A program made the position numbers and the translations under genes. The notes beneath the pieces were generated by a model. That model made no database searches and was not told the origin of the DNA. It saw only the letters and a program-made list of their open reading frames with translations. Shown piece by piece: positions 593 to 58,977 of a DNA stretch of 64,000 nucleotides. How positions within the stretch are numbered: position 1 is the first letter of the stretch; the number at the start of each line of letters is the position of its first letter. This DNA comes from an uncultured Gammaproteobacteria bacterium (GTDB lineage Bacteria; Patescibacteriota; Microgenomatia; JAMCZE01), in assembly GCA_964609775.1 (NCBI GenBank), contig CAZSSJ010000001.1, positions 22,858 to 86,857 on the forward strand. The letters are read 5' to 3'.

Positions 593-1003
593 GTGACTGA
601 TATTGTTAGTTCCATTTTGAGGGATTGTTACACTCGGACCGAAGCCTTGGCGAAATTGCGGGAATTGCGGGAAGCGGCTATGGATGAGGGACGGGCGGAG
701 GCGAGGCGAAAAGACGGGGAAGGAAACATTGAGGAAGAGCTGGAAACGGCGAGAGAGGAAATTGAGAAACAGGATGTCCTGACAATTTACCTCCCGGTGG
801 AGCTGTCTTTTGCCCAGATAGAGGAGCTGGGCCAAAAGGTCCGGCAGATTGTTCAGGAGGACATCCTTTTAGATCTCAGGCGGGATGAAAGACTCATTGG
901 AGGGTGCGCGCTGGCATTTAGAGGAAAATACCGGGATTTTTCCTTACGGGTGCAATTTGAGCAAGGGAGAGAATTTCTGAGGGGATTAGTTTTGAAGGAG
1001 TGA
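593..1003 (+). CDS. atpH: ATP synthase delta (OSCP)-like subunit, short form
   Basis: Sits between b and alpha. C-terminal RLIGGCALAFRGKYRDFSLRVQFE resembles the OSCP C-terminus. GTG start. Confidence 0.5.
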   Translation: MTDIVSSILRDCYTRTEALAKLRELREAAMDEGRAEARRKDGEGNIEEELETAREEIEKQDVLTIYLPVELSFAQIEELGQKVRQIVQEDILLDLRRDERLIGGCALAFRGKYRDFSLRVQFEQGREFLRGLVLKE

Positions 1004-5945: not shown

Positions 5946-8900
5946 GTGGATAGGAACAAAGCAAAGGGAAAGTACAAGAAGCTTTTAAAGATCGGCGAGG
6001 CTGCGGCTGTTCTTGGCGTTTCCATTGACACGCTGCGCCGGTGGGACCAGGAAGGCAAGTTGAGTTCAATTAAGACCCCCGGGGGGACGAGATATTACTC
6101 CCTGGGCGATTTGCGCAAGATTAACCCTGAAGTCGGGGAGATTATCAAAACAGAAAAGCAGGAAAGGGCGTTTGACCTGACAGCTCTTTCTGAGGAGGCG
6201 AGGCGGGAATATTTGGAAAGCCCGATTGGAAGCCGGGGTGGCCAGCTTGCTCGACCAGGTCAGTCAAAGCGCATCAGTGGGGTCAGTTACCCGAGTCAGG
6301 TGGCGAAAGAAGCAGAGGCTGGGCTTCGAGCGAGAAAGCTGGCCTTGGGGGCGGCTTTGGCTGCAGTTGTTATAGGGTTGGTAGCGACTGGGGTTGTGGC
6401 GCTTCGAGGGACAGGATTGTTTAGGGGGGATTTGGTGAAGACCGGGAGTGAGAGGGAAGGTGCGGGTGAGGTTCTAGCTATTACCGCAGGGAAGAGCTTT
6501 TTGGAGATCGGGGCGGAGACGGTGTTTAAGGATCGGGTCGACTTTGGCGGTTCGGCCGACGGCTTTTCCGTTTTTGGGGGAGACACGGTGTCGCGGCGGC
6601 TGACGGTGACGGGGGCGGATGTGGCCTTAGACCAATCTCTGACGGCATCGTCTTCGCCGACGTTTGCTTCTTTGAAGCTTAGCGGGACGAGTGATCAGAT
6701 TGTGGTTGGGGGAAACGGAACGCTGACTTGGACACCAACGGCGGCGCGGACGGTGACATTTCCCGACGCGACTGGAACGGTTGTTCTGGACACGGCCACT
6801 CAAACCCTGTCAAACAAGTCACTTTCCGGATCAAGTAACACCTTCACGAACATTCCGAATTCGGCGCTGTCGAACTCGAAGATTACCATCAATGCGGGAA
6901 CAAATCTGGGAGGCGGAGGGGATGTGTCCTTGGGATCGAGTGTAACCATTGACCTGGATGACGCTATTTCCCTGACGTCGGCGACTTTTTCCGGGACGCT
7001 GGGGGTCGGGGGAACGGCTTCGGTCGGCGGGCAGATCATTCTTGACGGAGCGACCGCGGAGATTAACGCCACGAATAACCGGCCGCTGGACTTGGGGTTT
7101 GAGAACACCGGGGCGGTGCGGTTTTTGAACTCGACCAACTATGTTGACAGCAATAATAACTTGTATATCAACGGAGTGTTGGTCGCGGGGCCGACGACAC
7201 AAGGTTATTGGCAGAGGAATTCCGGGGCTTTGGCCCCGACGAATATTACGGACTCTTTGGTCGTCGGGGGGACGGCGACGGCGTCGGGAAAGTTTCAAGT
7301 CTACGGACTGTCGGCTCTTAATCCGGTGGCGAGCATTTCGGGGAGTTCATCGAAGGCCGCGTTCATCGTAGATAACACTGTTGGGGATTTGTTTACCGCT
7401 TCCTCCTCCGGCCTCAACCGTTTTGTGATTACCCAGAATGGAAATGTGGGGATTGGGACAAGCGCTCCGGCCTATAAGCTCGATGTCAACGGGTCGACGA
7501 ATATTGCTAATGGGTTGACGATTGCGGCCGGGAACTTGACTTTGACCGGGTCGCAGTCAATTGACGCGACGGGGATTTTGTCCATCGGGACTTCTAACCA
7601 AACATCGCTTCTTATCGGCCGGGTTGGGGCGCCGACGACGATCTACGGCTCGTCGGTGACGATCAGCTCGAGCACGTTTAGCTCCAATGCGGCGACGATT
7701 TCCGGGACGCTCGGCGTCGGGGGCGAAGCTTCGTTTTCGGCCAAAATTATTCTGGATTCGCCAACCTCGGAGATTAATGCCACGAACAGGCGCTATTTGG
7801 ATCTGGGGTTCATGAACACCGGCGGCGTGCGCTTTCTTAATGACACAAACTACATCACTCCGAGCGGGGATCTGTATTTAGCCGGCAGTTTGATCAGTTC
7901 CGGGACACAGGCGGGCTTCTGGCAGCGGCCGGCGAGCACCGGAGCCCTGGCCCCGATAAATATTACTGACTCACTGCTGATCGGCGGCACGGCGACAAGT
8001 TCAGCAAAATTTCAAGTCTATGGTCTCTCAGCGTTAAATCCGGTGGCGTCAATTTCGGCTTCGTCGGCAGTCGCCGGGCTCATGGTGGACAACACCGTCG
8101 GGGATTTGTTTACGGCAAGCTCATCGGGCTTAAACCGGTTTGTGATTACCCAGAATGGAAATGTGGGGATTGGGACGACGGCTCCAGTTGGACTGCTTGA
8201 TGTCGCGGCAACGGCCCCCTTCGTTATCACTTCGGCGGGCCAGGTCGGCATCGGGACGACGAGCCCGGTGGGACTTCTTCATGTTCAGGGAGCGTGTGTC
8301 ACGGGAGACACGCTGATTCGAGTCCGGCGTAGGAAGAAGAAGAAAAATGGTGACTGGGAAGATGAATGGCTTGATTTGCCAATTAAGCAGCTTAAGGCGG
8401 GGGATGAAGTGATGACACTGGATGAAAGGACGGGGGAGTTTACTACCTCAGTGGTTCGGGAACTCATGGACAAAGGGATTAAAACGACCTTTAAACTGAT
8501 GACCGCTGACGGCAAATCCATCCGGACAACAGCGGAACATCCTTATTTGGTGCAGGAAAGTGGCAGCCCGGACAGTAATTTCCTCTCTGGACTGACTTTT
8601 GCTTCAGTGAAAAAGATCTCCCAAGATTACTATTTCACTGTCTTGTCGGGCCGGAAGGTGGCTGTTAAAGCATTGGACGGCGAGATTGTGCATTTCACTA
8701 GCGAAGGGTTCTCTCATATTACTCACGAGAAGAAGAGCGAATTTGAAATAATGACGAGACTTTTTGCTCTGTCTAAAGTTTTGACGGTTCTGGAAACAGG
8801 TGTCAAAGTTTCTCAGAAAGACAGAAAGATCGTTAACGGCAAAGTTAATGATTATTGGACTTTGGAGGAAGTTGTTGAGGGCGTTTTAACTAAAGTTGTT

Positions 8901-11900
8901 GTCAGGTCGATTGAGGACGGGCCGAAGCAATTTTTGTCAGTTGTTTGGAAGGATAAGACTCCGGAAGCCACAAAAAATGTGGGGGACGTTGCCTCTCGCA
9001 TATTGCAGCGACGTGGACGAATGGTTACGTCTCAACGTAGGGCCCACGAGAAGTTTTATACCACAATTCTGGCCGATTTGTCAAGAGGGGTCTGGGGATA
9101 TAGAGGGATTTCCTTAGCGCAAGACTTAGTTTCCAAAAAGAAATGGGTTAAAGTGCGGTTTTTGAAACCCGGCATGGAGATCGCTACTTTCGGGCCTGAT
9201 GGCCGAATTTCCTGGCAGAAGATTGAGTCCATTGAGAAAGTGGGAGAGGAGCAGGTTTATGACATCGAAGTGGAAAACACTCACAATTTTGTGGCCGGGC
9301 ACTATATAGACAACACCAACCAGAGGGCCCTAATTTCACAGGAAGGAGAGATTCTACTTCGTTATCTGTCTTTTGAACAAAAGGAAGCCGAGGAACAGGG
9401 CGATCATGACCAAAGCAAAACCAATTTGGAAACGATTGAAAAATTCTGTCAGGTCAATCATGATTTTTTGCTCCAACTGTCCAAAATAACCGCCGACAGT
9501 AGACAAATTGTAGCCGAACCAATATTGCCTGTCAACACCCAGGCGTCCTTAATGGCGAAAAGTCCCAAGAGCAGTCCGGCTGCCAAGTCGATAAATAAGG
9601 AAGAAAAAATCTTGAGAACGGAAACCCTCATCGAGGAGAGTATAGAAAAGGTGGAGAACCTTGTCAATCGTTACAGGAAAGGCGAAATTCGGTTCGGTGG
9701 CATTGTGGCGCATAACACGACGGGGAAGGCATTGGTGGATCTGAACTACACCGGGACGGATCAGGCAATTTTGACAGCTTCTGTTTCGGGGACCACGAAA
9801 TTTGTCATTAACAATTCCGGTCAAGTGGGAGTGGGAACCGGAGCAAACAACAATACTTTGCTGGCGGATGTGGATTTGCGGACGCTGACGAACACGGTTC
9901 CGGTGGCTTCAATTGCCGGAAGCACGGGAGTGGCAGCCTTGGTGGTGGACAACGTTTCCGGGGATTTATTTACAGCCAGTAGTTCGGGTTTGAGTCGTTT
10001 TGTGATAGATAGGGGAGGGAATGTGGGGATTTCCTCGACGGCGCCGTCACAGAAACTGGACGTGGTTGGGGCGGTGCGGTTGGGAGCTAACGGGGGGGCC
10101 AATGACATTTTGAACACGACGGTTGGGGGAAGTGCCCCGAGCGGGGTTTTGTATTGGGGAAACAGGACGCTGTGTGACACTTCCGGCAACTGTTCGGGAG
10201 TCGGGGGGATTGTGGCCGGGAGCGGAGTCCAATATTACATTAGCAAATGGACTGATGCTTCCGGCACGACAATCGGCGATTCACTGCTGTATGACCCGGG
10301 CACGTCGGTGGGACTCAACACCACCTCGCCGGCGGCGATTTTTGACATTCGGGGCACGCAGGGAACTTCGGCTCTCTCCGGGACTTTGCCGGTGGCCAGC
10401 ATTTCCGGGAAAACAAGTTTTGCGGCGGTGGTGGTGAACAACGATTCGACGGTCGGGGACCTCTTCACGGCTTCGGCGTCGGGGTTAAGCCGGTTTGTCA
10501 TCACCAATACGGGCAACGTGGGCATTGGCACGGCACTTCCGGCCCAGTTGCTCTCGGTCGCCGGGGCGATCCAGTTAGGGAGCGGTTTGGGAGCAAATGA
10601 TGTTCTGAATACTGCTGCTGCCGGGGGGGTGCCGTCGGGACTGCTCTATTGGGGCAGCCGGGAAGTCTGTGATGCTTCGGGCAACTGCGCCGGAGTGGGC
10701 GGGCAGGTCCAGGGGACGGGAACCCAAAACTATATTACCAAGTGGAACAATGCCGGGGGAACGGCGATCGGGGATTCGCTGCTGTATGATTCCGGCTCGG
10801 CGGTGGGTCTGGGAACAACCTCGCCTTTGGGGACACTCCATGTGGTTGGGCAGTGCGTCGTCTCTGGCACAAGGATTCGGCGGCGACGCCGTCGCCGAGG
10901 CTATGGCGCCCGAGGGGCGGAAGAGTGGGTTGAGGAGGAAGTGCCAATTGAGGAGATTGAGCCGGACGATGAAATTGTGTCATTGAACGTTGAGAAGGGG
11001 CGGTTTGAGTGGCACAAGGTGGAAAAGACCCTTAATAAGGGGCTGCTTGCCGGGATGGCCCTTTCGACTTCGACGGGGAAGAGAATCGTGACCACGGGCA
11101 AACATCCATACCTGATGATCGACAAACCGGAAATTACTCAAGGGACTTTTGAGGTTGACCAATCGATTAAAGTGGAAGATTTGGGCAAGGCGACAATTGT
11201 GGGCTTTGCTTTGGGAAAACTGGCCTTTGCGGTGAAACTTCGACAACAGGACAAAAAGTTGATCCGTAGTGGTTTTCAGAAAGCCGGTAAGGAAGATCTC
11301 TTTGCTCCTTTGACCTTTGCCAATGTAGTGGTTAATCTCTTCCGGGCGGCCCAGATCTATCCGGCTAGAATCGCGCTTGATGAAGAATACACCGGCTTTT
11401 TCGGGGAGATTAAAGATATTATTAAAAAGTCCTTCCCGGATGCAGAGGTTTTTGAGACTAATCTGAAAGATTCTTCAGCTGCTCATCAAAGGGTCTGGGC
11501 GGTCAACAAAGGGAGAGCGAAAGAGGATGTCCTCTTGGTTCTTGAGGGCGGAGAATTAAAAGAAAGGCCGGGAGTTAAATCAACTCTGAGCGGAAGACCT
11601 TTGCCCCTGAATGGTTACAGGGGGACCAGTCAACCCATCGGCCTTTACTATGGTGAATTCTATCACCGAGGGGCGAATTTGTCAACCCCTTCGACAAGCT
11701 CAGGGTTGATAGCGAGAAAGACCGAGCTATCAAGGGCTCGATGGGCCAAAGCTGGAGATATTAGGGTCGGTCAGTATGTGGCGACGGAGGATGGGTTTGA
11801 GAAAGTGACGGGGATTTCTGACGCCGGCCGGGTGCTGATGTACGACCTTTCCGTTGCTAACACCCACAACTTCCTCGCCAACGGGATTGTGGCCCATAAC

Positions 11901-14900
11901 ACCGGGACGATGGCGATCGCGACGGTTTCGGGGGCGACGTCTTTTGCGGCCCTCACCGTGGATAACTCCGGCGTCGGGGATTTGTTTACGGCCAGTTCGT
12001 CTGGCTTAAACAGGTTCGTGATTACCCAGAACGGCAACGTCGGCATCGGGACGACGGCTCCAGTTGGACTGCTTGATGTCGCGGCAACGGCCCCCTTCGT
12101 TATCACTTCGGCGGGCCAGGTCGGCATCGGGACGACCTCGCCGGTGGGACTGCTGCATGTCCAGGGGGCGTGTGTGACGGGGGACACATTGTTGAAACGA
12201 CGGCGTAAGAAATGGCGGACACGCAGGTCCGCCCCTACGGAAATGGGACCGGATCCAGAAGGGGATGCTGAATCCACCAAAAAATCCGCTTACGCGGACT
12301 TGGTAAACCAGATCGGCTTGCTAAATGGCTGGCTTGATACCCTTACGGGTAATATATCAGATGGTGATGAAATTGTCAAGGATCAGATGGGCATGGACCT
12401 GCCGGGAGTTGAACCCGGTAGGCTTGGGGTATCAAGCCAGCCTAGCAAACCTGCCAGGCCCATGCCAATGAATAGTATAGCAGACGATGGTGACTATTAC
12501 TGGGAAGATGTGCGGATTGATGAAATTGAGGCGGGGGATGAAGTGATGACCCTGGATGAAAAGAGCGGGGAGTTTGTAGCCAGCACGGTTAAACAATTGA
12601 TGGTGATGGGGAATAAAAAGATCATTAAACTGACAACCGAGAGTGGAAAGACCATTCGGACAACGGAAAAACACCCTTATCTGGTCAAGGTCAAAGGAGA
12701 AAATCAGAAAACAGCCTTCGCTTTCATTGATGAAACAGGAATTACACTTGATCCCGGCCAACACCATCTTGGGGTGGGGGCTCTTAATAAAAAGGAGGAT
12801 GGTGCCTTAAAAGACACGTTTTGTCAAGGGGGAGGGAAGGTGTTTTGGCGTCAAGTTTCAACTCTCAAACCGGGAATGTTGATCGCGACAGTTGATGGCT
12901 TTGAGAAGATTATCAGGATTGAGGAACTGCCCGAGGAGATGGTTTATGACATTGAAGTGGAAAACACCCACAATTTTGTGGCCGGGCACTATGTCGACCA
13001 GGCTTCACAGACGGCGTTAAAAGCGGAGGAGGAAAAGTTTCTCTGTCTTTATCAACAAAACACGTTAACGAGAGAGTTTTCTCTTTTCGACCTTACCGAA
13101 GAAAATCCAAGCCAGAAAAAGGGCAATAAGCCCCAATCCAACTCCTATCCAGGCAGCGATATAAAATTGATCCAAAGTGGTGATCATATGTTTTCAAATA
13201 GCCAGTCTTCTAATTTGATGGCTATCCAGCTACAGAGCGTAGCAAAGATGAGGTTTGCTGTCAAGGCCAAGATGGGGTTGGACGAAGCGAATGATGCAAA
13301 AGCACCAAATATGAACCCAGTGGATAGGTTTGAGAGTATAGATGAAACTACCTTGACTTGGCTAGGGCGAATATTAAAAGAAAACTCCATTAACTTGACT
13401 TTAGACGAAGCGCTTTGTCTTATCAATAAATATGAGTCTGGGGAAATTGTTTATGGGGGCATTGTGGCGCATAACACGACGGGGAAGGCCCTGGCGAATC
13501 TGAACTACACCGGAACCGATCAGGCAATCTTTACAGCTTCTCAGGGAGGAGTGTTGAAGTTTTCTCTTAATGGCATCGGAACAGAGCATACGGCTTCGGT
13601 GGCGGGGACAACGTCTAAGGCGGCTCTGATTGTGGACAACACAATCGGGGATTTGTTCACGGCCTCGTCATCGGGCTTGGCTCGCTTTGTGATAACACAA
13701 AGCGGCAATGTGGGGATTGGGTCCGCCGCTCCCAGCGTCGCTCTGGATGTCACCGGAGCGGGGAAGACGAGTGGGGCCTTTACGGTGGGGAATAATTTGA
13801 CGGTGACGGCCGGGGGCCTCACGGTGACGGCCGGGAACATTGCCCTGACGGGGTCGCAGACGATTGACGGGACCGGGACGCTGACAATTGGCGGCACTTC
13901 GCAGACGTCGCTGGCGTTGGGGAGGAGCGGGGCGCAGACGACGATTTCCGGCGGGCCGGTGGTCGTCAACGGCGCTTCCTTTGCCTCGGCAGGGACAACG
14001 ACATTCACCGGCGGGAATGTGGGGATCGGGACGACGACGGTGACGGATTTTGCTTTGGAGATGGGCGGGAGCATCGGGCCGGTGACGACCGATCAATATG
14101 ATTTGGGGTCGGCCGCTCTCGAATGGAATAATTTGTATGTCAAAAACATTATTTCAACGGGGACGACGGCCGGATTTTGGCAGCGGGCGTCGGGGGTGCT
14201 GGCTCCGCAGAACATTACAGACTCGCTGATTATTGGCGGGACGGCAACATCCTCCGGGAAATTCCAAGTTTACGGCCTATCGGCTCTTAATCCAGTGGCG
14301 AGCATTTCCGGGTCTTCGGCAGTGGCCGCGCTTATGGTCGATAACACAGTGGGAGATTTATTTACGGCCTCATCGTCGGGACTAAATCGGTTTGTGATTA
14401 CTCAAAATGGAAATGTGGGGATTGGGAGCACGGTTCCTGTATCACGGCTTGATACAGGAGGAGGAACAATTTCACTTAATGGTGGGTGGTTGTCGAATGA
14501 TGGTGGAGCTGAAGGTGTGTTTGTTAAAACAGACGGGAATGTGGGTATCGGGACAAGTGCACCAGCCTATAGGCTTGATGTCGTCCACACCACACCGACT
14601 GCGGCAAATGGCAGTGTGTCACCAGATCAAATAGGATTGAGGGTTAACAGGGCCCACTATGTTGGGACCCCTGGACCCTACCCTAATGCTGTTTATGGCG
14701 TTTTGGGTCAAGGCCAAGCAGGTCAGGGGAGTGCCAGTGTGTCTTATTCCAATACGGTGGGTGCTAGAGGTGTGGCTGGACAAGCAATTGTCAATGTTAC
14801 GGGTGGTGCCAGTGTTACGGGTGCAAGTTCATTGTATGCGTTGAATGCTACGATTACTGCTGGAACTTTATCTAATCAATATGGATTATATGTTGAGTCG

Positions 14901-17900: not shown

Positions 17901-20900
17901 TCAACTTCGGGATTGAGCCGGTTTGTGATTGACAAGAACGGAAATGTGGGGATCGGGAGTTCGGCTCCAGGATACAAACTGGATGTTTCGGGAACGGCTC
18001 ATGTCACCGGAGCAGTCACTTTAGATACGGCCCTGACGGTGGCCAATGGGGGGACGGGAGCCCAGACATTCACAGACAACGGCGTGCTCTTTGGCAACCT
18101 GACGGCCGCCATTGGAGCGACGGCCGAAGGAGCGACCGGGCAGTGCCTCATCGGGAACACCGGGAGCGCGCCATCATGGTCAGCATGTACCACGGCCTCA
18201 GGGCAGTTGTGGCAGGAAGCTTTGGGAGTGGTCGCGCCGCTGAACATCACGGATTCCCTGATTATTGGGAAGATCGCGACACCCAGCGGGGCCATTACCT
18301 CGGGCAGCATGCAGATTTACGGGGTGAACAACCTGACCCCGGTCGCCTCTATTTCGGGGGTCAGTGCGGTGGCGGCGCTCATCGTGGACAACACCGGCGG
18401 GGATGTCTTCACGGCCAGCACTTCGGGACTGACCAGATTTGTGATTGACAAGAACGGCAACGTCGGGATTGGGACAACGAGCCCGGATTATCCACTTGTA
18501 GTAGTAGGGACAGCTTCTGACGGAACACGGACACTTGAGGTAAAAAATTCAGTTGCTGGTAGTATATCTAATTTCCAAGTAACAGGTGATGGTGTCAACG
18601 CTCGCCTTATGGCGTTGTCTAGTTCGTATTCATCATCCGGGGCTTATGCTGCTGATACAGTTGTCTTAGACGACGATCAGGGTTACGCTGCTGGCCTTAC
18701 ACTACTTGCCCGTAATTCAAGTGGGTATATCCGAATGTTTACAGGCGGTTTTGATGACGGAAATGAGCGTCTGAGAATTAACAGCACTGGCAACGTCGGC
18801 ATCGGGACGACGAGTCCGGTGGGACTGCTGCATGTTCAGGGACAATGCGTCATTGCCGGAACAAAAATTAAAAGAAGAAAGAAGAAAGAAAAAAGAAGAA
18901 AGCAAGACACTGCCGGAACGGGGCCGGATCCGGTCGGCGATTGGGACTATGAAGATGTTCCCATCGAACAGATCGAACCGGATGATGAGATTCTTTCCCT
19001 AAACCAGGAAAAGGGCCAGTTTGAGTGGCACAAGGTGGAACAAACCATGAATAAAGGACTCCTGCCGGCCTTGGCTCTGACAACTTCTACTGGAAAGAGA
19101 ATTGTCACGACGGCAAAACATCCATATTTGGCGATCGATCGGCCGGAAACTACTCAAGGGACTTTTGAGGTGGATCAATCAATCAAGATCGAGAATTTGG
19201 GGGCGGCAAGCATTATAGGGTTTGCCCTGGGGAAACTAGCTTTTGCCGTTAAGCTGCCGCAGAAGGATAAGAAGATTATTCTCGCTCGTTATCAGAAGAA
19301 GAACCAAAAAGATGTTTTTGCCCATGAGACTTTTGCCCGATGTGTGGTTGCCGCCTTTAAGATTGCCCGGATTTATCCAGCGAGAATTGCTCTCGATGAA
19401 GAATACACCAGTTACTTCCGAAGAATCGAGAGCGTTATTAAGGAAAGTTTCCCTGACAGCGAGATTTTTCAAACCAACCTTAAGGATGGTTCCGCCGCCC
19501 ACAAAAAGGTCTGGGCTGTTAATAGGGGAATTTTAAGAGAGGATGCTGTTCTAAGTTTGGAATCGGGAGAATTAAAAGAAAGGCCGGGGGTTAAATCAAC
19601 CTTCAGAATGCCTTTGCCCCTGGTTGGTTACAGGGGGACCAGTCATCCACACGGCCTTTACTATGGAGAATTCTACTCCACGGAGCGGGAATTGTCAAGA
19701 GCAAAGTGGGTTAAGGCCGCGGAGGTTAGGAAAGGGATGTGTGTGGCGACGGAGGATGGTTTTGAGAAGGTCACAGGGATTTCCGATGCGGGGCAGGTGG
19801 CGATGTATGATCTGCAAATTGCCAACACTCACAATTTTGTGGCCAATGGGATTGTGGCGCATAACACGACGGGGAAGGCCCTGGTGGATCTGAACACCAC
19901 CGGGGACCAGGCGGTGTTCACCGCCAGTGTTTCCGGAAACACCAAGTTTGTGATTAACAATTCAGGACAGGTGGGAGTGGGAACCGGAGCAAACAACAAC
20001 ACGCTGCTGGCCGATGTGGATTTGCGGACGCTGACAAACACGGTTCCGGTGGCTTCAATTGCCGGGAGCACGGGGGTGGCGGCTCTGGTTGTGGACAATA
20101 CAGCCGGGGATCTTTTCACCGCCTCGTCAAGTGGGCTATCAAGATTTGTGATTGACAAGAACGGGAATGTGGGGATTGGGACGGCGGCGCCGACGGCTCT
20201 GGTGTCTTTAGCTAACTCGAACTATACGACGCAAAACATGTTGAACGTGGCGGGGACGTCGACAGGGTTGACGACCGGGTCACTGGCGAGTTTTGACTGG
20301 AGTCCGACGGACTGGTCGACCTCGAGCGGGAATTTGGTGAATATTAATCTTGGCAGTTTGGCCGACACGACGGGAAACATCTTTAATATTTCCGATGACG
20401 GCAGCTCGATCTTCTCGGTTTCGCCGCAGCAGATTGTCAACTCGTTGCCAACGTCATTTAATGCCGCCGGAGATGTGGCGATTGCCTATGACATTAATTT
20501 CACCAATCCGACGGCATCATACATTAAATCTGCTGCACCCATGTATTTGCAGGCAGGGGAGCTATTTAATTCCTCGGATTTGACGTTGAAGACCTTTAAC
20601 AAAGGCTTGATTGTTCTGGATCCAGATGAAGCGGTCACAATTGATGGGGCGGCTTCTGTGTCGGGGCAGCTCATGGTCGGCAGTACGACAGCGGCGCCGG
20701 CGCAGTTTGGCAAGTTCTATGTGACGGACTCTAACACGGCCACTTCTTCAGCCTTCATTGAAAACACTAACACAGCTGCAGCAATTTCGGGTTTGGTCAT
20801 TAAGCTGGGGAGTACGACCCTGGACACCACCTCGCATTTTGTTAATTTTCTTGATTTGAACGGCAAGATGATTGGCAACATTCGGGCAGCTAACACGACA

Positions 20901-21923
20901 ACGGTTGCTTATCAGACAAGCGGAATTGCGGATTTTGGGGAATGGATGAAAGTTTCTTCGGATTTGACTAATTTGTCTAATTGGACCAATTTGGTTTCTC
21001 CGGGGACGATTGTTTGTCAAAGCGCGGATGGGGTGGAGCCCTGCGAGGCGAGTGAGTCGGCGAGGATGGCGGGGGTGACTTCTGACACGACGGCGTTTTT
21101 GGGAGGAGAGGAGAAAGACGGAAGCGTGGTTGTCGGAATGTTGGGACAAATTCGAGTGAAGATCGCAACGGACTCAGCGCAAATTGAGCCGGGTGACGCG
21201 ATTGGGGTGGCGATCGCCGGTTTGGGAAAGAAAATTACGTCACGGGGATATGTGGTCGGCCGGGCGATGGAATCATGGTCCTCCGGACAAGAGAAAGTCT
21301 TAGTTTATGTCAACCCCGGTTACTTTGAGGGCCCCGAGTCGCAGCTGGCGTCGAAACTCTCGGTGGATGAGATTCAGGAACAGGTGGCGTCGATCAGTGC
21401 AAATTTGACTAATTTGTCTAATTGGTCCAATTTGAACAGCGACGAATTTGCGACGGTTTCGGGAAACCTGAAAGTTTTGGGAATGACGGAGCTTTCCAAC
21501 ACGACGATTGGCGGGTCGCTCACTGTGGGACTGGTCCATGTTGATGATTTGCTGGGCGATGTTTCCGGTTTGAATGGGAGTTTGAGTTTGCAAAACGGGA
21601 TGCTGACAATTAGTCAAATTGGACAAATTGGTCAAATTGGGGTTAACGGCGATTTGACAGTTTCCGGGGAGTTGACGGCGAAGAAGATTAACGTGCCGAC
21701 GGGAGTGGCTGGGGCCTCGGCGGGCAAGGCGACGATTCTTGCTGGACAAAGCGAAATTGAGATTACGACCAGCGCGCTTAGTGCTAATTCCTTGATTTTT
21801 GCGACACCGGAAGACGTGCCGGTGGCCGTCTCGACGACCAAGACAGCGACAGACAAGTTTAAGATCAAACTGGACTCCCCTGCGGGGGCAAACATCAAAA
21901 TTAATTGGTGGATAATCAATTAG
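5946..21923 (+). CDS. Giant repetitive surface protein (5,325-aa precursor; 3,069 aa after removal of six inteins)
   Basis: Single uninterrupted ORF with a GTG start. Many ...DLFTASSSGLNRFVITQNGNVGIGT... repeats. C-terminal ...GMLGQIRVKIATDSAQIEPGDAIG... module. Confidence 0.9.
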   Translation: MDRNKAKGKYKKLLKIGEAAAVLGVSIDTLRRWDQEGKLSSIKTPGGTRYYSLGDLRKINPEVGEIIKTEKQERAFDLTALSEEARREYLESPIGSRGGQLARPGQSKRISGVSYPSQVAKEAEAGLRARKLALGAALAAVVIGLVATGVVALRGTGLFRGDLVKTGSEREGAGEVLAITAGKSFLEIGAETVFKDRVDFGGSADGFSVFGGDTVSRRLTVTGADVALDQSLTASSSPTFASLKLSGTSDQIVVGGNGTLTWTPTAARTVTFPDATGTVVLDTATQTLSNKSLSGSSNTFTNIPNSALSNSKITINAGTNLGGGGDVSLGSSVTIDLDDAISLTSATFSGTLGVGGTASVGGQIILDGATAEINATNNRPLDLGFENTGAVRFLNSTNYVDSNNNLYINGVLVAGPTTQGYWQRNSGALAPTNITDSLVVGGTATASGKFQVYGLSALNPVASISGSSSKAAFIVDNTVGDLFTASSSGLNRFVITQNGNVGIGTSAPAYKLDVNGSTNIANGLTIAAGNLTLTGSQSIDATGILSIGTSNQTSLLIGRVGAPTTIYGSSVTISSSTFSSNAATISGTLGVGGEASFSAKIILDSPTSEINATNRRYLDLGFMNTGGVRFLNDTNYITPSGDLYLAGSLISSGTQAGFWQRPASTGALAPINITDSLLIGGTATSSAKFQVYGLSALNPVASISASSAVAGLMVDNTVGDLFTASSSGLNRFVITQNGNVGIGTTAPVGLLDVAATAPFVITSAGQVGIGTTSPVGLLHVQGACVTGDTLIRVRRRKKKKNGDWEDEWLDLPIKQLKAGDEVMTLDERTGEFTTSVVRELMDKGIKTTFKLMTADGKSIRTTAEHPYLVQESGSPDSNFLSGLTFASVKKISQDYYFTVLSGRKVAVKALDGEIVHFTSEGFSHITHEKKSEFEIMTRLFALSKVLTVLETGVKVSQKDRKIVNGKVNDYWTLEEVVEGVLTKVVVRSIEDGPKQFLSVVWKDKTPEATKNVGDVASRILQRRGRMVTSQRRAHEKFYTTILADLSRGVWGYRGISLAQDLVSKKKWVKVRFLKPGMEIATFGPDGRISWQKIESIEKVGEEQVYDIEVENTHNFVAGHYIDNTNQRALISQEGEILLRYLSFEQKEAEEQGDHDQSKTNLETIEKFCQVNHDFLLQLSKITADSRQIVAEPILPVNTQASLMAKSPKSSPAAKSINKEEKILRTETLIEESIEKVENLVNRYRKGEIRFGGIVAHNTTGKALVDLNYTGTDQAILTASVSGTTKFVINNSGQVGVGTGANNNTLLADVDLRTLTNTVPVASIAGSTGVAALVVDNVSGDLFTASSSGLSRFVIDRGGNVGISSTAPSQKLDVVGAVRLGANGGANDILNTTVGGSAPSGVLYWGNRTLCDTSGNCSGVGGIVAGSGVQYYISKWTDASGTTIGDSLLYDPGTSVGLNTTSPAAIFDIRGTQGTSALSGTLPVASISGKTSFAAVVVNNDSTVGDLFTASASGLSRFVITNTGNVGIGTALPAQLLSVAGAIQLGSGLGANDVLNTAAAGGVPSGLLYWGSREVCDASGNCAGVGGQVQGTGTQNYITKWNNAGGTAIGDSLLYDSGSAVGLGTTSPLGTLHVVGQCVVSGTRIRRRRRRRGYGARGAEEWVEEEVPIEEIEPDDEIVSLNVEKGRFEWHKVEKTLNKGLLAGMALSTSTGKRIVTTGKHPYLMIDKPEITQGTFEVDQSIKVEDLGKATIVGFALGKLAFAVKLRQQDKKLIRSGFQKAGKEDLFAPLTFANVVVNLFRAAQIYPARIALDEEYTGFFGEIKDIIKKSFPDAEVFETNLKDSSAAHQRVWAVNKGRAKEDVLLVLEGGELKERPGVKSTLSGRPLPLNGYRGTSQPIGLYYGEFYHRGANLSTPSTSSGLIARKTELSRARWAKAGDIRVGQYVATEDGFEKVTGISDAGRVLMYDLSVANTHNFLANGIVAHNTGTMAIATVSGATSFAALTVDNSGVGDLFTASSSGLNRFVITQNGNVGIGTTAPVGLLDVAATAPFVITSAGQVGIGTTSPVGLLHVQGACVTGDTLLKRRRKKWRTRRSAPTEMGPDPEGDAESTKKSAYADLVNQIGLLNGWLDTLTGNISDGDEIVKDQMGMDLPGVEPGRLGVSSQPSKPARPMPMNSIADDGDYYWEDVRIDEIEAGDEVMTLDEKSGEFVASTVKQLMVMGNKKIIKLTTESGKTIRTTEKHPYLVKVKGENQKTAFAFIDETGITLDPGQHHLGVGALNKKEDGALKDTFCQGGGKVFWRQVSTLKPGMLIATVDGFEKIIRIEELPEEMVYDIEVENTHNFVAGHYVDQASQTALKAEEEKFLCLYQQNTLTREFSLFDLTEENPSQKKGNKPQSNSYPGSDIKLIQSGDHMFSNSQSSNLMAIQLQSVAKMRFAVKAKMGLDEANDAKAPNMNPVDRFESIDETTLTWLGRILKENSINLTLDEALCLINKYESGEIVYGGIVAHNTTGKALANLNYTGTDQAIFTASQGGVLKFSLNGIGTEHTASVAGTTSKAALIVDNTIGDLFTASSSGLARFVITQSGNVGIGSAAPSVALDVTGAGKTSGAFTVGNNLTVTAGGLTVTAGNIALTGSQTIDGTGTLTIGGTSQTSLALGRSGAQTTISGGPVVVNGASFASAGTTTFTGGNVGIGTTTVTDFALEMGGSIGPVTTDQYDLGSAALEWNNLYVKNIISTGTTAGFWQRASGVLAPQNITDSLIIGGTATSSGKFQVYGLSALNPVASISGSSAVAALMVDNTVGDLFTASSSGLNRFVITQNGNVGIGSTVPVSRLDTGGGTISLNGGWLSNDGGAEGVFVKTDGNVGIGTSAPAYRLDVVHTTPTAANGSVSPDQIGLRVNRAHYVGTPGPYPNAVYGVLGQGQAGQGSASVSYSNTVGARGVAGQAIVNVTGGASVTGASSLYALNATITAGTLSNQYGLYVESLSGASNNYGVYVAGNNSSYFGGNVGIGTTSPVGLLHVQGACVTGDTLLKRRRKRKSKYGDWEEDYWEDIRIDEIEAGDEILTFDETTGGFTASQVRELMDMGKKTTFKLVTEGGKEIRTTANHPYLVKSANTSNFFNETFKVVAEIARAYYFATLTSWDPIAPALNNERISISEEGWHHLHHKARSRGEMLTRYFALPKAAALLASKEARVTYEPGGDGVSEFWSLYGTVDDVQVKVVVRSVNKGPKYFYSVIWKSEVKEDTKKRAASCLYPQCGGVITPQLFNERIIDQMSDFVKKRKRDYQLGSYLSGEDSTTKWVKVKQLKPGMEIATVGGDDQISWQKIKSIEKIGEEQVFDIEVENTHNFVANGIVAHNTTGKALANLNYTGTDQAIFTASQGGTLKFALNGTGTDFTASVAGTTSKAALIVDNTVGDLFTASSSGLNRFVITQNGNVGIGMATPSATLEVRKGPIPSTFDSSLALYSAGQFVNTNTNWYDTELNLLDTRDQAAGVGGRLAFGGVYRQVGTTNVTTFAAIGGYKENSTSGDYAGYLSFETRPNGGIFTEQMRVSSAGNVGIGTTSPVGLLHVQGACVTGDTLIRVRRRKKKKNGEWEDEWLDVPIKDIQAGDEVATLDEKTGEFIVSKVKQLMNMGRKVVFELLTESGKVVKTTENHPYLVDQSGKQMVSDLSAIQKETYEFAEKLGKKYYVNNLAGRKVKSRALGEFVEFSHSGWNHFVEKSHSINELITRFFALPRVVTVIRSSPHVTSYNIVEKKDMTIEYWELQEIIDHVLVKVLVCAVDGGPKFFLTCTWLGTKENEGVKPTKKELSLSPRSREMQDQLGRRRELVIPQLFSRVIIPKKVKWVKVKDLTVGVTIATKDGWEKVVSIKKLDEQQVYDIEVENTHNFVANGIVAHNTTGKALVDLNTTGDQAVFTASVSGTTKFVINNSGQVGVGTGANNNTLLADVDLRTLTNTVPVASISGSTGVAALVVDNVSGDVFTASTSGLSRFVIDKNGNVGIGSSAPGYKLDVSGTAHVTGAVTLDTALTVANGGTGAQTFTDNGVLFGNLTAAIGATAEGATGQCLIGNTGSAPSWSACTTASGQLWQEALGVVAPLNITDSLIIGKIATPSGAITSGSMQIYGVNNLTPVASISGVSAVAALIVDNTGGDVFTASTSGLTRFVIDKNGNVGIGTTSPDYPLVVVGTASDGTRTLEVKNSVAGSISNFQVTGDGVNARLMALSSSYSSSGAYAADTVVLDDDQGYAAGLTLLARNSSGYIRMFTGGFDDGNERLRINSTGNVGIGTTSPVGLLHVQGQCVIAGTKIKRRKKKEKRRKQDTAGTGPDPVGDWDYEDVPIEQIEPDDEILSLNQEKGQFEWHKVEQTMNKGLLPALALTTSTGKRIVTTAKHPYLAIDRPETTQGTFEVDQSIKIENLGAASIIGFALGKLAFAVKLPQKDKKIILARYQKKNQKDVFAHETFARCVVAAFKIARIYPARIALDEEYTSYFRRIESVIKESFPDSEIFQTNLKDGSAAHKKVWAVNRGILREDAVLSLESGELKERPGVKSTFRMPLPLVGYRGTSHPHGLYYGEFYSTERELSRAKWVKAAEVRKGMCVATEDGFEKVTGISDAGQVAMYDLQIANTHNFVANGIVAHNTTGKALVDLNTTGDQAVFTASVSGNTKFVINNSGQVGVGTGANNNTLLADVDLRTLTNTVPVASIAGSTGVAALVVDNTAGDLFTASSSGLSRFVIDKNGNVGIGTAAPTALVSLANSNYTTQNMLNVAGTSTGLTTGSLASFDWSPTDWSTSSGNLVNINLGSLADTTGNIFNISDDGSSIFSVSPQQIVNSLPTSFNAAGDVAIAYDINFTNPTASYIKSAAPMYLQAGELFNSSDLTLKTFNKGLIVLDPDEAVTIDGAASVSGQLMVGSTTAAPAQFGKFYVTDSNTATSSAFIENTNTAAAISGLVIKLGSTTLDTTSHFVNFLDLNGKMIGNIRAANTTTVAYQTSGIADFGEWMKVSSDLTNLSNWTNLVSPGTIVCQSADGVEPCEASESARMAGVTSDTTAFLGGEEKDGSVVVGMLGQIRVKIATDSAQIEPGDAIGVAIAGLGKKITSRGYVVGRAMESWSSGQEKVLVYVNPGYFEGPESQLASKLSVDEIQEQVASISANLTNLSNWSNLNSDEFATVSGNLKVLGMTELSNTTIGGSLTVGLVHVDDLLGDVSGLNGSLSLQNGMLTISQIGQIGQIGVNGDLTVSGELTAKKINVPTGVAGASAGKATILAGQSEIEITTSALSANSLIFATPEDVPVAVSTTKTATDKFKIKLDSPAGANIKINWWIIN
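5982..6404 (+). other. N-terminal MerR/excisionase-type HTH (aa 13-58) plus a single TM helix (aa 132-153) of the giant protein
   Basis: LLKIGEAAAVLGVSIDTLRRWDQEGKLSSIKTPGGTRYY matches the HTH_17/MerR pattern. LALGAALAAVVIGLVATGVVAL is a hydrophobic span. Confidence 0.6.
8295..9716 (+). mobile_element. Intein 1 (474 aa): class-A insert plus a 133-aa insertion between blocks F and G
   Basis: Starts CVTGDTLI after LHVQGA. Block B TTAEHPYLV, block F VYDIEVENTHNFVAG, ends GGIVAHN followed by Thr. Confidence 0.85.
10854..11900 (+). mobile_element. Intein 2 (349 aa): class-B insert
   Basis: Starts CVVSGTRI after LHVVGQ. Block B TTGKHPYLM, block F MYDLSVANTHNFLA, ends NGIVAHN followed by Thr. Confidence 0.85.
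12171..13475 (+). mobile_element. Intein 3 (435 aa): about 100-aa insertion after block A and a 157-aa insertion between blocks F and G
   Basis: Starts CVTGDTLL. Block B TTEKHPYLV, block F VYDIEVENTHNFVAG, ends GGIVAHN followed by Thr. Confidence 0.85.
15021..16022 (+). mobile_element. Intein 4 (334 aa): class-A insert
   Basis: Starts CVTGDTLL. Block B TTANHPYLV, block F VFDIEVENTHNFVA, ends NGIVAHN followed by Thr. Confidence 0.85.
16671..17642 (+). mobile_element. Intein 5 (324 aa): class-A insert
   Basis: Starts CVTGDTLI. Block B TTENHPYLV, block F VYDIEVENTHNFVA, ends NGIVAHN followed by Thr. Confidence 0.85.
18846..19865 (+). mobile_element. Intein 6 (340 aa): class-B insert
   Basis: Starts CVIAGTKI after LHVQGQ. 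Block B TTAKHPYLA, block F MYDLQIANTHNFVA, ends NGIVAHN followed by Thr. Confidence 0.85.
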
Positions 21924-21971
21924 GCTGGCTTGCCCTGAGCTTGTCGAAGGGTGGATTGTGAATTAACGAAA

Positions 21972-56408: not shown

Positions 56409-58977
56409 ACCGGCAGAGATAGAGAAGAAGTGGCCCTCCTTCGCCAAGGCTTCGGACGGGCAAGCAGGACGTTATAACCATCGGGAGATTGAGCATAAGT
56501 GGCAGGAGGTGTGGGAAAAAGAGAAACTATATCTAACTCCAAAACCTGATGCCGAGCATCCGAAGAGATACATTTTGGATATGTTTCCCTACCCGTCGGG
56601 GGCGGGACTTCATGTTGGGCATATGGAAGGCTACGTGGCCACGGATGTTATTGTCAGATACCTGCGGATGAAGGGGCTTTCGGTTCTTCACCCGATGGGC
56701 TGGGACGCGTTTGGCCTGCCGGCCGAGAATTATGCGATTAAAGAAGGAATTGCCCCTGATAAGTCGACGCACGAGAATATCAAGAATTTTAAGTATCAGC
56801 TTCAACTTTTGGGACTGTCTTATGATTGGTCCAAAGAAATAGATACATCTAGCCCGAAGTATTACAAATGGACACAGTGGTTGTTTACGCTGCTGTTTAA
56901 AAAGGGCTTAGCCTATAAAAAGAAAGCGCCGGCGAATTGGTGCCCCAAGGACGAAACGGTGCTGGCCAACGAGCAGGTGGTTGATGGGAAATGCGAACGG
57001 TGCGGGACGGCGGTAGTGCAAAAGGAATTGGAGCAGTGGTTTTTTAAGATTACGGATTATGCGGATAAGCTGATTTCCGGTCTGGACAAAGTCGATTGGC
57101 CGGAATCGACCAAGACGCAGCAGGTTAACTGGATTGGGAAGAAAGAGGGCATCGAAATTACTTATGAGGTGGTAGGTGTTCCTGACGAAATTACTGTTTT
57201 TACGACTGCTCCGGTTAACTTTGGGATGACCTTTTTGGTTTTAGGACCAGAACACCATTTCGTCCAGAAAATTATTTCTGGTGAAATTAAGATTTCTTCT
57301 GAGACTCAAAAAGAAGTTAAGGATTATGTTGAGGCGGCGGGTAAAAAGACAGAACTGGAGAGGATCGCTGCGGGTAGGGAGAAGACAGGGGTGTTTACCA
57401 CTTTATATGCAATTAACTCCATTAATGGTAAAAAAGTGCCGATTTATGTGACTGATTTTGTTTTAGGGCATGTGGGTACTGGTGCGGTTCAAGGTTGCCC
57501 GGCGCATGATCTTAAAGACTTTCAGTTTGCAAAGAAGTTTAACTTGCCGATCGTTAGAGTTGTTGAGGGTCCCGATGGTGATGCTGGACCGGTAGAGAGA
57601 GAAGATCAGATTATTGAAAAGGGAATGCGGGGTACATTTATTAATTCAGAGTTTTTGAACGGCTTGAGTTTTGAGGGAGGACTGCAAAAGACGATGGACT
57701 ATTTTGTTGAAAAAGGCGTTGGTAGGAGGGTGGTGACCTATCACATTCGGGATTGGCTGATTTCGAGGCAGAGATATTGGGGGTGCCCGATCCCGATGGT
57801 GTTTTGCGAAAAAGACAGCTGGCAGCCTGTTCCTGATTCAGAACTACCTATTTTGTTACCAACTGATATAGATTTTCGACCGACCGGGGAATCACCGATT
57901 GCCAGATCAGGGTCTTTCCAAAAAGGGGTAAGGTGCCCGGTTTGCGGGGAGGCAGCCAAGCGGGAGGTAGACACCATGGACACTTACGTCGACTCCTCAT
58001 GGTATTTTTACCGCTTTGTAGATCCGGATAATAACAAAAAATTCGCTTCGAAGAAGGCTCTCGAAACATGGATGCCGGTGGACATTTATGTTGGCGGCGG
58101 GCATGTGGTCCAGCACCTGCTGTTTGCCCGATTCTTCCACAAAGTTCTCGTCGATGCAGGATATATTAAGGGTGATGGCGCTGGTGAGCCTTTCCTAAAG
58201 CTTAGAGCGCCGGGATGGATTTTGGGCCCGGACTCTCGCAAGATGAGCAAGCGCTGGGCGAACGTTATCACTCCGGAGGAAGTGGTTGCCAAACATGGAG
58301 CGGACACGATGCGGATGTATGAGATGTTTATGGCGCCGTTTGAAGTCGATAAACCGTGGAATGTCAACTCGGTGGCTGGGGTGCAGCGCTTTTTGAGCCG
58401 AATTTACGGTTTGTTTGAAAGATCTTATCAGTTGAAGGACGCAGTTGCTGGCGAAGCAATGGCTCGTGAGATTAATAAATTGGTTTTTAAGGTCGGCAAA
58501 GATATTGAGGGTTTCAAGTTCAATACGGCAGTGGCTGCCATGATGGAGTTTGTGAATCAGGTACAGGCAGGATTGAAGACGAAGGAGCAGGGTGAAGGAA
58601 GCTACACCTGGAGAGTGGTTTGGGAGAAGTTTCTGACCGTTTTGGCGCCGTTTGCGCCGCATTTGGCGGAGGAGCTGTGGTCCCACTTCGCCAAGGCTTC
58701 GCGGGACAAGCATGGATATGTTTCTGTCCATCAGCAGTCGTGGCCGGAGGTTGATGAGAAATATCTGGGCCAGGAAAGCAGGACGATCGTGGTGTCGATT
58801 AATGGCAAGGCGAGAGCGACATTGAAAATGAGCAATGGGCAATCCTCAATGAGCAATAGCCAGGAGGAGGTTGAGAAGTTGGCGAGAGGAGATCAGAATG
58901 TGGCGAAGTGGCTGGAAGGGAAAGAGGTTAAGAAAGTGGTCTACGTACCAGGCAAGATTGTCAACTTCGTCGTTTAA
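56392..58977 (+). CDS. leuS: Leucine--tRNA ligase
   Basis: FPYPSGAGLHVGHMEGY (HIGH region), KMSKRW (KMSKS). ATG at 56392 after GAAGGAGG; the track ORF opens at 56338. Confidence 0.95.
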   Translation: MDRKYEPAEIEKKWPSFAKASDGQAGRYNHREIEHKWQEVWEKEKLYLTPKPDAEHPKRYILDMFPYPSGAGLHVGHMEGYVATDVIVRYLRMKGLSVLHPMGWDAFGLPAENYAIKEGIAPDKSTHENIKNFKYQLQLLGLSYDWSKEIDTSSPKYYKWTQWLFTLLFKKGLAYKKKAPANWCPKDETVLANEQVVDGKCERCGTAVVQKELEQWFFKITDYADKLISGLDKVDWPESTKTQQVNWIGKKEGIEITYEVVGVPDEITVFTTAPVNFGMTFLVLGPEHHFVQKIISGEIKISSETQKEVKDYVEAAGKKTELERIAAGREKTGVFTTLYAINSINGKKVPIYVTDFVLGHVGTGAVQGCPAHDLKDFQFAKKFNLPIVRVVEGPDGDAGPVEREDQIIEKGMRGTFINSEFLNGLSFEGGLQKTMDYFVEKGVGRRVVTYHIRDWLISRQRYWGCPIPMVFCEKDSWQPVPDSELPILLPTDIDFRPTGESPIARSGSFQKGVRCPVCGEAAKREVDTMDTYVDSSWYFYRFVDPDNNKKFASKKALETWMPVDIYVGGGHVVQHLLFARFFHKVLVDAGYIKGDGAGEPFLKLRAPGWILGPDSRKMSKRWANVITPEEVVAKHGADTMRMYEMFMAPFEVDKPWNVNSVAGVQRFLSRIYGLFERSYQLKDAVAGEAMAREINKLVFKVGKDIEGFKFNTAVAAMMEFVNQVQAGLKTKEQGEGSYTWRVVWEKFLTVLAPFAPHLAEELWSHFAKASRDKHGYVSVHQQSWPEVDEKYLGQESRTIVVSINGKARATLKMSNGQSSMSNSQEEVEKLARGDQNVAKWLEGKEVKKVVYVPGKIVNFVV

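Follow-up and report, generated by a model that had tools for sequence, protein, structure and literature searches.

A 48-nt in-frame insertion in an intein of a Gottesmanbacteria giant gene is probably a copy of a short hairpin repeat found across bacterial phyla

The 64-kb stretch of DNA considered here (the window, from contig CAZSSJ010000001.1) is at least 99.9% identical to contigs of a groundwater population of Candidatus Gottesmanbacteria (Microgenomates, in the Candidate Phyla Radiation, CPR), including contig MFJK01000007.1 of assembly GCA_001780905.1. It contains an open reading frame (ORF, 5946-21923) for a repetitive protein of 5,325 residues with six inteins inside, and the second of these inteins carries 48 nt that its paralogue, intein 6, does not have. 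In our opinion these 48 nt are probably a derived in-frame copy of a non-autonomous hairpin repeat, similar to the repetitive extragenic palindromic sequences (REPs) and to MITEs (transposable elements of the miniature inverted-repeat type), and the copy is most likely neutral, in a linker that the intein can dispense with. We name the repeat F1.

All six inserts of the giant ORF pass the Pfam Intein_splicing model (PF14890), and all six have the same boundaries, with Cys first, His-Asn last and Thr immediately following (C...HN|T). Between inteins 2 and 6 the identity is 82% at the DNA level and 69% at the protein level, and their alignment has one gap of 48 nt (16 codons) at the site in question, just as a sequence-only reading of the window had proposed. 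The exact register of the gap is ambiguous, since any placement from 11661-11708 to 11685-11732 fits. The same reading had described a short LS duplication on both sides of the insertion. The residues NLS and ELS are indeed there, while at the nucleotide level the exact repeat shrinks to TCAA alone (11682-11685 and 11730-11733). Conservation of ELSRA(K/R)W makes it probable that the original ELS is the right-hand one, in which case the inserted block is most likely 11661-11708, although the register cannot be fixed.

Whether the 16 codons are a gain of intein 2 or a loss from intein 6 can be judged from outgroups. A search with the intein 2 protein against an index of 5.8 billion proteins gave no homologue at E <= 1e-5; a pattern scan of metagenome contigs, built on the alignment of inteins 2 and 6, returned five more distant inteins of the same type. 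Three of the outgroup inteins, all from other metagenomes (L248, L250 and L252), have the short form and a further one (L249) is shorter still, so the codons were gained in intein 2 and not lost from intein 6. By this comparison the 48 nt are a derived in-frame insertion. The AlphaFold (AF2) model of intein 2 rests on a shallow alignment and has a mean predicted local distance difference test score of 55; its confident Hint parts are residues 1-90 (N-terminal) and 291-349 (C-terminal), with a poor middle. The insert, residues 271-290, is predicted to lie at the end of that middle, just before the C-terminal Hint splicing subdomain.

Inside the insertion is the 19-mer CCCTTCGACAAGCTCAGGG (11687-11705, plus strand), and its exact reverse complement stands at 21933-21951, so that the inverted pair noticed in the sequence-only reading is confirmed. 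Even at three mismatches these are the only 2 matches in 64 kb, where 0.01 would be expected, and none of 100 shuffles had two or more. Identity between the intein and intergenic copies stops exactly at both ends of the 19-mer; the flanks are unrelated. The mRNA of intein 2 carries the complement of the minus-strand core, CCCTGAGCTTGTCGAAGGG, and there encodes PSTSSG.

Matches in public genomes indicate that this 19-mer is the consensus core of F1, in which three complementary, covarying base pairs close an invariant 13-nt loop, TGAGCTTGTCGAA. Both window copies have the core NNN-TGAGCTTGTCGAA-N'N'N' and agree with the consensus at 19 of 19 positions. Neither shows the outer stem CCGTTCG/CGAACGG or an inverted doublet: both are singlets, the intein copy having TCAACCC/GGGTTGA and the intergenic one only the half-unit GGCTGGCTTG as flank. 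In species-representative genomes (one per species, 596 Gb) the 19-mer occurs in at least 120 loci and at least 134 copies, with about 4 expected. The genome-copy statistics given here (n = 134) refer to the copies among the matches listed, many of which come from metagenome-assembled genomes. The matches listed cover at least 20 phylum-level groups: Bacteroidota, Cyanobacteria, alpha-, beta- and gamma-Proteobacteria, Campylobacterota, Actinobacteria, Nitrospirota, Myxococcota, NC10, Planctomycetota, Verrucomicrobiota/Lentisphaerae, Acidobacteriota, Armatimonadota, Chloroflexota, Eremiobacterota, Binatia, Zixibacteria, Ignavibacteria, Calditrichota, Deferribacteres and Spirochaetes, together with five CPR groups (Staskawicz-, Peregrini-, Peri-, Parcu- and Saccharibacteria). 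Isolates are among them (Microbacterium mangrovi, Microlunatus endophyticus, Sphingopyxis, Porphyrobacter and Moraxella caviae).

The inner 15-mer of F1 is present in at least 120 viral contigs, compared with 14 viral matches, with unrelated flanks, for an unrelated 16-mer of the window used as a control. On plasmids the canonical doublet is found at 140 places in 34 replicons, among them plasmids of Moraxella, Sphingobium, Comamonas and Polaromonas, with up to 12 per Sphingobium megaplasmid, and all of these places are unannotated. The canonical unit is absent from 5,426 complete Escherichia coli genomes and from GenBank phages, a test that is insensitive to bare 19-mers. Since F1 is pan-bacterial, the perfect 19-nt identity of the two window copies need not mean that one of them was recently copied from the other. 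The sequence-only reading saw a family of short elements that enter coding DNA without breaking the frame; the family is real and is repeatedly in frame inside genes, yet it is a family of bacteria at large and not one specific to this genome.

F1 copies are mostly inverted doublets or clusters, 166 copies having another core within 200 nt. The closing triplets are most commonly CCC/GGG, and GTG/CAC, GTC/GAC, GCG/CGC and TGG/CCA also occur. The commonest outer flank, CCGTTCG...CGAACGG, surrounds 42 of the 134 copies; the 5' flank of other subfamilies is TGTCA, TCGGT or GCYTG. Single copies show no bias of strand relative to transcription (15 sense, 10 antisense), and the intergenic contexts are convergent in 14 cases versus 5 divergent. 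Both the lack of strand bias and the preference for convergent contexts are REP-like and argue against a strand-specific RNA role. Some loci hold more complicated arrangements: nested or tandem arrays of half-units, [CCCTGAGCYTG]n...[TCGAAGGG]n, in L149, L180 and L238, and in L184 one unit inside the loop of another. Such arrays suggest self-targeted insertion or slippage.

Covariation was examined in 122 different contexts of the 15-mer. The two pairs that adjoin the fixed C-G are CG59/GC23/AU10/UA5 and CG41/UA27/GC13, and the covariation score of 0.428 compares with 0.192 for shuffles (none of 500 reached it) and 0.11-0.17 for slid partners; further out, covariation is near chance. These figures support a real hairpin stem. 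The hairpin around CCCT...AGGG that the sequence-only reading suspected thus has comparative support, its CCC/GGG closing stem being backed by the covariation of the family, although the window copies taken alone fold no better than shuffles (z from -1.8 to +1.1).

Of the six reading frames of the F1 core, five are open, reading PELVEG, LSLSK(G), PFDKLR, PSTSSG or LRQAQ(G), with a stop only in the CCC-TGA frame. For 26 of the 134 genome copies the frame stays open over 100 codons or more in each direction, which is an upper bound in high-GC genomes. Examples in recognizable proteins are collected in Table 1, where in two cases a solved structure delimits the extra residues.

Mobility is seen directly, by comparison of plasmid sequences, for a relative of the window copies. 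In Moraxella osloensis plasmid pNP7-5 (NZ_CP024448.1; L369, 468-598, considered together with L371, L372 and L373) a 119-nt element with a central F1 doublet interrupts umuC after the codons for ...VVLS. Its ends are inverted repeats, TAGT(C/G)AA, and a TA stands at either flank (TA|TAGTCAA...TTCACTA|TA). The element is absent at the 98.7%-identical umuDC locus of pYHS3 and of three other plasmids, where the empty site reads TTATC-CA-ATAAC, and it stands elsewhere, 98-99% identical and in different contexts, on at least five further plasmids. A Sphingobium copy downstream of htpG was also considered as an empty/filled pair and was rejected, the indel not being clean.

When all ORFs around 240 F1 loci were clustered, no recurrent neighbour gene was found and only phage structural genes recurred; no transposase is present among the called genes of the window. 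The elements thus appear to be non-autonomous.

A spacer of 48 nt separates the stop of the 5,325-residue ORF from the likely ATG (21972) of a second giant ORF, and the intergenic copy lies within it. No terminator- or promoter-like site was found on the plus strand at this copy. Its 5' flank is of the GCYTG type common to other family members, and the GGCTGGCTTG before the core would read as a degenerate half-unit of the array type described above.

The sequence-only reading had also noted that the extended intergenic copy resembles an insert in leuS; the sequence that it quoted stands at 56438-56468. The resemblance is real, and the insert belongs to a distinct sister family, F2, with the loop TTCGCCAAGGCTTC. 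Flanks of F2 are CCNCC-TTCGCCAAGGCTTC-GGN'GG, then RCARG. The N position covaries, with 51% Watson-Crick pairs versus 27% in shuffles (GC20, TA16, CG4, AT4). On the opposite strand F1 reads CCC-T-GAGC-TTG-TCGAA-GGG and F2 reads CC-GAAGC-CTTG-GCGAA-GG: the two have one architecture and differ in the loop, so the leuS resemblance holds at the level of a superfamily. The F2 core TTCGCCAAGGCTTCGG occurs in the window at 56440 (+), 58687 (+) and 639 (-), all three copies being inside genes, and in viral contigs at 101 loci, about 7 times the control. All six of its frames are open. The atpH containing the third copy is identified by its gene call and a weak OSCP match.

The N-terminal leuS insert is flanked by an imperfect, diverged 30-nt duplication encoding YEPAEIEKKW / YNHREIEHKW, and the alignment to Thermus thermophilus LeuS starts only past it. 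In the surrounding region (56392-56510) the closest LeuS, P0002 (76% identical), has no F2 insert, whereas P0001, P0054 and P0059, CPR proteins 58-70% identical to that of the window, have a homologous insert and the same 10-residue duplication. Either the insertion is old and losses followed, or such events recurred at a single site. In LeuS P0059, from another CPR bacterium, an additional short insert that looks GC-rich (DPRAGSGQAQNPK, residues ~50-62) lies downstream of the one of F2, and there may be more peptide-coding repeat families of this kind in CPR genomes.

Table 1. Features of the window discussed in the text, the insertion site in other inteins, and in-frame F1 copies in proteins of other bacteria
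Feature	Position or locus	Strand	Sequence or residues	Basis
Intein 2 (giant ORF; Cys1 to His-Asn), which contains the insertion	10854..11900	+		Intein_splicing 57.5 bits, cutoff 35.8
Intein 6, paralogue with the empty site	18846..19865	+	GEFYSTERELSRAKW (begins at 19665)	boundaries and alignment to intein 2
Zone of the 48 extra nt, intein 2	11661..11732	+	from HRGANLSTPSTSSGLI (11661-11708) to TPSTSSGLIARKTELS (11685-11732)	gap versus intein 6; absent in L248, L250, L252
F1 core in intein 2	11687..11705	-	CCCTGAGCTTGTCGAAGGG (minus strand)	exact match, identical to family consensus
Perfect 7-bp inverted repeat, 14-nt loop	11682..11709	.	TCAACCC/GGGTTGA	sequence; recovered by minus-strand DNA fold
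Second, overlapping 8-bp inverted repeat in the extra segment, 12-nt spacer	11706..11733	.	TTGATAGC/GCTATCAA	sequence; recovered in RNA and DNA folds
Intergenic F1 copy	21923..21951	+	degenerate 5' half-unit (TA)GGCTGGCTTG, then core CCCTGAGCTTGTCGAAGGG	exact match; sense orientation
F2 copy, leuS N-terminus	56438..56468	+	PSFAKASDGQAG; insert PSFAKASDGQAGR	orthologue and structure comparison
F2 copy, leuS C-terminal domain	58685..58712	+	HFAKASRDKH	8-residue insertion versus solved LeuS
F2 core in 136-residue OSCP-like atpH (593-1003)	639..654	-	TTCGCCAAGGCTTCGG, encodes ...TEALAKL...	16-nt exact inverted match to 56440-56455
Insertion site, intein 6			EFYSTERELSRAKWVK	reference length
Insertion site, outgroup intein	L248		SSYYKDKELSRAKWIK (reads ...YYKDKELSRAKWIK)	same length as intein 6
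Insertion site, outgroup intein	L250		FGSTINSISQSKWIK	same length as intein 6
Insertion site, outgroup intein	L252		SQNTNLFSIKWIK	same length as intein 6
Insertion site, outgroup intein	L249			shorter than intein 6
M17 aminopeptidase, Saccharibacteria	L145		SPSTSSGQ	9-10-residue insert versus 3jru
AlaRS, Ottowia	L240		RPELVEGQSSQASTSSVRT (doublet)	16-residue insert versus 2ztg
MetH, Ulvibacter	L181		HPELVEGQ	
HsdR, Sphingobacteriales	L200		HPELVEGY	
PolX-PHP, Saccharibacteria	L235		ALRQAQGKP	
M13 peptidase, Gordonia	L236		TLRQAQGA	
FAD oxidoreductase, Lentisphaerales	L169		DPSTSSGQ	

We suggest the following course of events. F1 units would spread as selfish DNA within and between genomes, and the moving factor would act in trans, as no transposase is encoded beside the units. 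Survival inside a gene would then depend on an added length that is a multiple of three, on one of the five stop-free frames and on a tolerant site. The intein 2 copy would satisfy all three, reading PSTSSG in a seemingly poorly structured linker before the C-terminal splicing subdomain. Because the intein is excised from the mature protein anyway, this copy is most likely a neutral passenger. In this gene-dense CPR genome most copies are inside genes, four of the five in the window (intein 2, leuS twice, atpH). We infer that the intein copy arrived by transposition, and that it is neutral.

Several observations weigh against a mobile origin of the intein insert. F1 is identifiable in only 19 of the 48 inserted nt, and the rest includes the inverted repeat 11706-11733, which is in no family member. 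There is no clean target-site duplication, TCAA alone being repeated at the borders, and there are neither terminal inverted repeats of the Moraxella type nor TA flanks. An empty site at this locus was not found either: all population variants recovered (L121-L127, L375 and L376, at least 99.9% identical) carry the insert. In about 76 kb of this genome F1 has 2 copies, thus it is low-copy there; with the three F2 copies this makes five, and a scan at two mismatches gave nothing convincing beyond them. The counts in public genomes are those of the matches listed, many of them from metagenome-assembled genomes, and no mobilising enzyme was found anywhere. Finally, REPs are normally lineage-specific, and for them a 13-nt loop that stays invariant from phylum to phylum is unusual; it could instead mean a conserved function or a conserved host factor.

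This last point leads to the strongest competing idea, which we nevertheless find unlikely, namely that F1 is a functional nucleic-acid motif under selection, either an RNA hairpin for stabilisation or processing of mRNA (with the closing stem, tandem sheared G.A/A.G pairs and a CUUGU loop) or a DNA or RNA site for a conserved host protein. The intergenic copy would then be the working one and the intein copy a by-product, or would act in antisense. Such an idea accounts well for a loop that is invariant across phyla while its closing stem covaries, and the intergenic copy does stand in sense orientation in an intercistronic spacer without a terminator. An F1-like doublet also makes up the 5' half of Rfam RF02901, a small RNA (sRNA) detected by RNA-seq in Aggregatibacter, and in F2, if the structure that we derive for it is correct, G.A pairs would flank a CUUG tetraloop. 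On the other hand, selection for one structured strand agrees poorly with the 15 sense and 10 antisense single copies, with copies in all five open frames and both orientations of unrelated proteins, with folding of the window copies no better than shuffles, or with an intein copy that puts the complementary strand into the mRNA. Presence/absence polymorphism, including a copy that disrupts a gene in Moraxella, and the absence of the canonical unit from 5,426 E. coli genomes are likewise hard to reconcile with it.

A local mutational origin without any transposition appears to us less probable again. Template switching or ectopic gene conversion would have copied the 19-mer from the opposite-strand intergenic copy 10 kb downstream and made the adjoining palindromes. 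Template switching can produce such hairpins in one step (PMC10710096), the two overlapping perfect inverted repeats of the insert have TTGA/TCAA in common with the flank, and the insert shows perfect identity with the intergenic copy over the 19-mer and none beyond its ends. But the 19-mer is the exact worldwide consensus, so this identity is expected without local copying; the two copies have no flank at all in common, the same kind of in-frame insert is found in unrelated genes and phyla, and a switch between loci 10 kb apart is unlike the usual short-range event. Template switching is a possible contributor to the second palindrome (11706-11733). That the 16 codons are simply ancestral intein sequence lost from intein 6, with a coincidental 19-mer match, we can hardly believe. 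The NLS/ELS codons do leave the alignment register ambiguous, which is the one point in its favour; it is already contradicted by the four outgroup inteins without the segment, by the 0.01 matches expected in the window and by the strong over-representation of the 19-mer in public genomes. An in-frame copy of a mobile hairpin repeat is the reading that we retain.

How does F1 relate to repeats already described? Palindromic repeats in frame are established: Rickettsia palindromic elements (RPEs) and intragenic GTAG/CGTC REPs in several species, many of them dimers that encode 20-30 residues (PMC3733652). The CGTC/TGTC-tagged REP superfamily (Di Nocera et al. 2013, PMC3733652) has members in several phyla; most of them are dimers, arranged head-to-head, on the downstream side of genes, no transposase is dedicated to them, and in-frame copies within known proteins are on record. 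F1 has the same habits, and TGTC, CCTC or CGTC stands just 5' of the stem in 22 of the 134 copies (~16%); at the intein copy, TGTC stands at 11680-11683, before its inverted repeat. The geometry of stem, loop and tail does not fit, since CGTC families have 8-9-bp stems starting with A-T, 4-5 nt in the loop and CCA as the tail (PMC3733652), whereas F1 has a covarying 3-bp stem and an invariant 13-nt loop. The DNA and peptide strings of F1 and F2 are absent from that paper and its supplements, and no matching strings were found in Quentin et al. 2018. REPs are imperfect palindromes of 20-40 bp, and the intein copy has this form, with a 7-bp stem and a 14-nt loop at 11682-11709.

RPEs, reportedly described by Ogata et al. 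in 2000, are selfish elements of ~100-150 bp confined to Rickettsia, inserted in frame and tolerated as extra surface peptides. The insert of intein 2 is in frame as well, but it has 48 nt with a 19-nt core (the F1 unit being ~19-33 nt and cross-phylum), it is in a Gottesmanbacteria host, and it is within an intein rather than a mature protein. REPINs (REP doublets forming hairpins) are lineage-specific, vertically inherited and tied to a single-copy gene for a RAYT (REP-associated tyrosine transposase, a Y1 transposase), which they flank. F1 resembles them in its hairpin units, which are often inverted doublets, non-autonomous and extragenic downstream of genes; it differs by the lack of a RAYT or any recurrent neighbour near 240 loci and by the same loop in at least 20 phyla. 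MITEs have terminal inverted repeats, target-site duplications and 70-300 bp, while the window insert has 48 nt and only TCAA repeated; the Moraxella relative does show these MITE features. The ends of the Moraxella 119-nt relative, and of that relative alone, recall the Correia-type MITEs of Neisseria, which we take to have a TA duplication and TATAGT... ends.

A different kind of record is Rfam RF02901 (AaHKsRNA41, Aggregatibacter sRNA 41), in which an F1-like inverted doublet, ...G-CUGAgCUUGcCGAAG-CAU...AUG-gUUCGgCAAGcUCAg-C..., makes up the 5' half of the consensus. Against this model an F1 doublet of Sphingobium (plasmid AP027312.1; L370, 495-654) scores 36.6 bits (E 4e-7; gathering score 97). 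No match to it at E <= 10 occurs in 11600-22050 of the window; at gathering scores the whole window has no Rfam match, and six canonical F1 loci have none at E <= 1. The entry covers a single sRNA locus in a single species, and the paper behind it is silent on repeats. Given that its consensus holds an F1-like doublet, it seems that an F1-type repeat is transcribed in at least one gammaproteobacterium and stands unrecognised in Rfam as a species-specific sRNA. Apart from this entry, no description of a cross-phylum family with the F1 loop was found in open-access text by DNA core, encoded peptides or concepts. Peptides encoded by F1 are familiar from 'hypothetical proteins' in many phyla, so annotators have certainly seen them. 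Elements of this kind are known; as far as we could establish, the breadth and invariance of F1, its sister F2 and its occurrence within an intein of a giant gene in a CPR genome are not.

A bolder reading can be offered only tentatively, and we would not call it probable: F1 and F2 may be an undescribed class of 'nano' mobile elements, or a universal nucleic-acid motif, consisting of hairpins of ~19-33 nt with an invariant loop, distributed from CPR to Proteobacteria, Actinobacteria, Cyanobacteria, plasmids and viral contigs, moved in trans by a very widespread factor and built translatable, with five or six open frames. If the 'nano' element reading were true, such elements would colonise essential genes and even inteins in gene-dense genomes, contradicting the lineage-specific view of REP-like repeats. 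Small palindromic repeats in frame have been known only as lineage-restricted (RPEs of Rickettsia, some REPs), whereas the F1 core spans most bacterial phyla; and in a streamlined CPR genome F1 and F2 are mostly inside genes, with one copy nested in another selfish element, the intein. At the intein 2 locus the 16 codons would be explained as passenger DNA and not as a feature of the intein. Should the family be as general as the scans suggest, it would contribute short insertions on a wide scale to conserved proteins (LeuRS, AlaRS, aminopeptidase and MetH are examples), repeatedly give rise to spurious 'hypothetical protein' calls and confusing alignment indels, and offer a tractable system for asking which universal factor recognises the 13-nt loop.

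The inteins of the giant ORF (8295-19865) deserve some remarks of their own. They form types: inteins 2 and 6 have in common a central region of ~190 residues, without a Pfam match, and inteins 1, 4 and 5 have another, with a weak LPD3 match in intein 1. A homing-endonuclease domain was not recognisable in any of the six. Relative to inteins 1, 4 and 5, intein 3 is longer by ~84 in-frame residues close to its N-terminus (12171-12540). This extra segment contains a perfect 16-bp inverted repeat, GGCTGGCTTGATACCC (12327-12342 / 12427-12442), and its 12-mer TAGGCTGGCTTG recurs in the 5' flank of the intergenic F1 copy (21923-21934). We considered an arm of the inverted repeat as a further widespread family and rejected it, as its 14 viral matches have unrelated flanks and are at chance level. 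On the minus strand, 12390-12464 has a tRNA-like fold with a perfect T-arm (CCGGG-TTCAACT-CCCGG) and a fold z-score of -2.67; ARAGORN calls no tRNA in this segment, and it scores 28.6 bits (E 0.018) against Rfam mascRNA-menRNA, for which the gathering score is 42.5. Elsewhere in the window, a G-rich tract at 54193-54218 (GGGC, then ~22 G) varies in length by 10-22 nt among otherwise identical assemblies of the population, which may be either a slippage-prone homopolymer or an assembly artefact.

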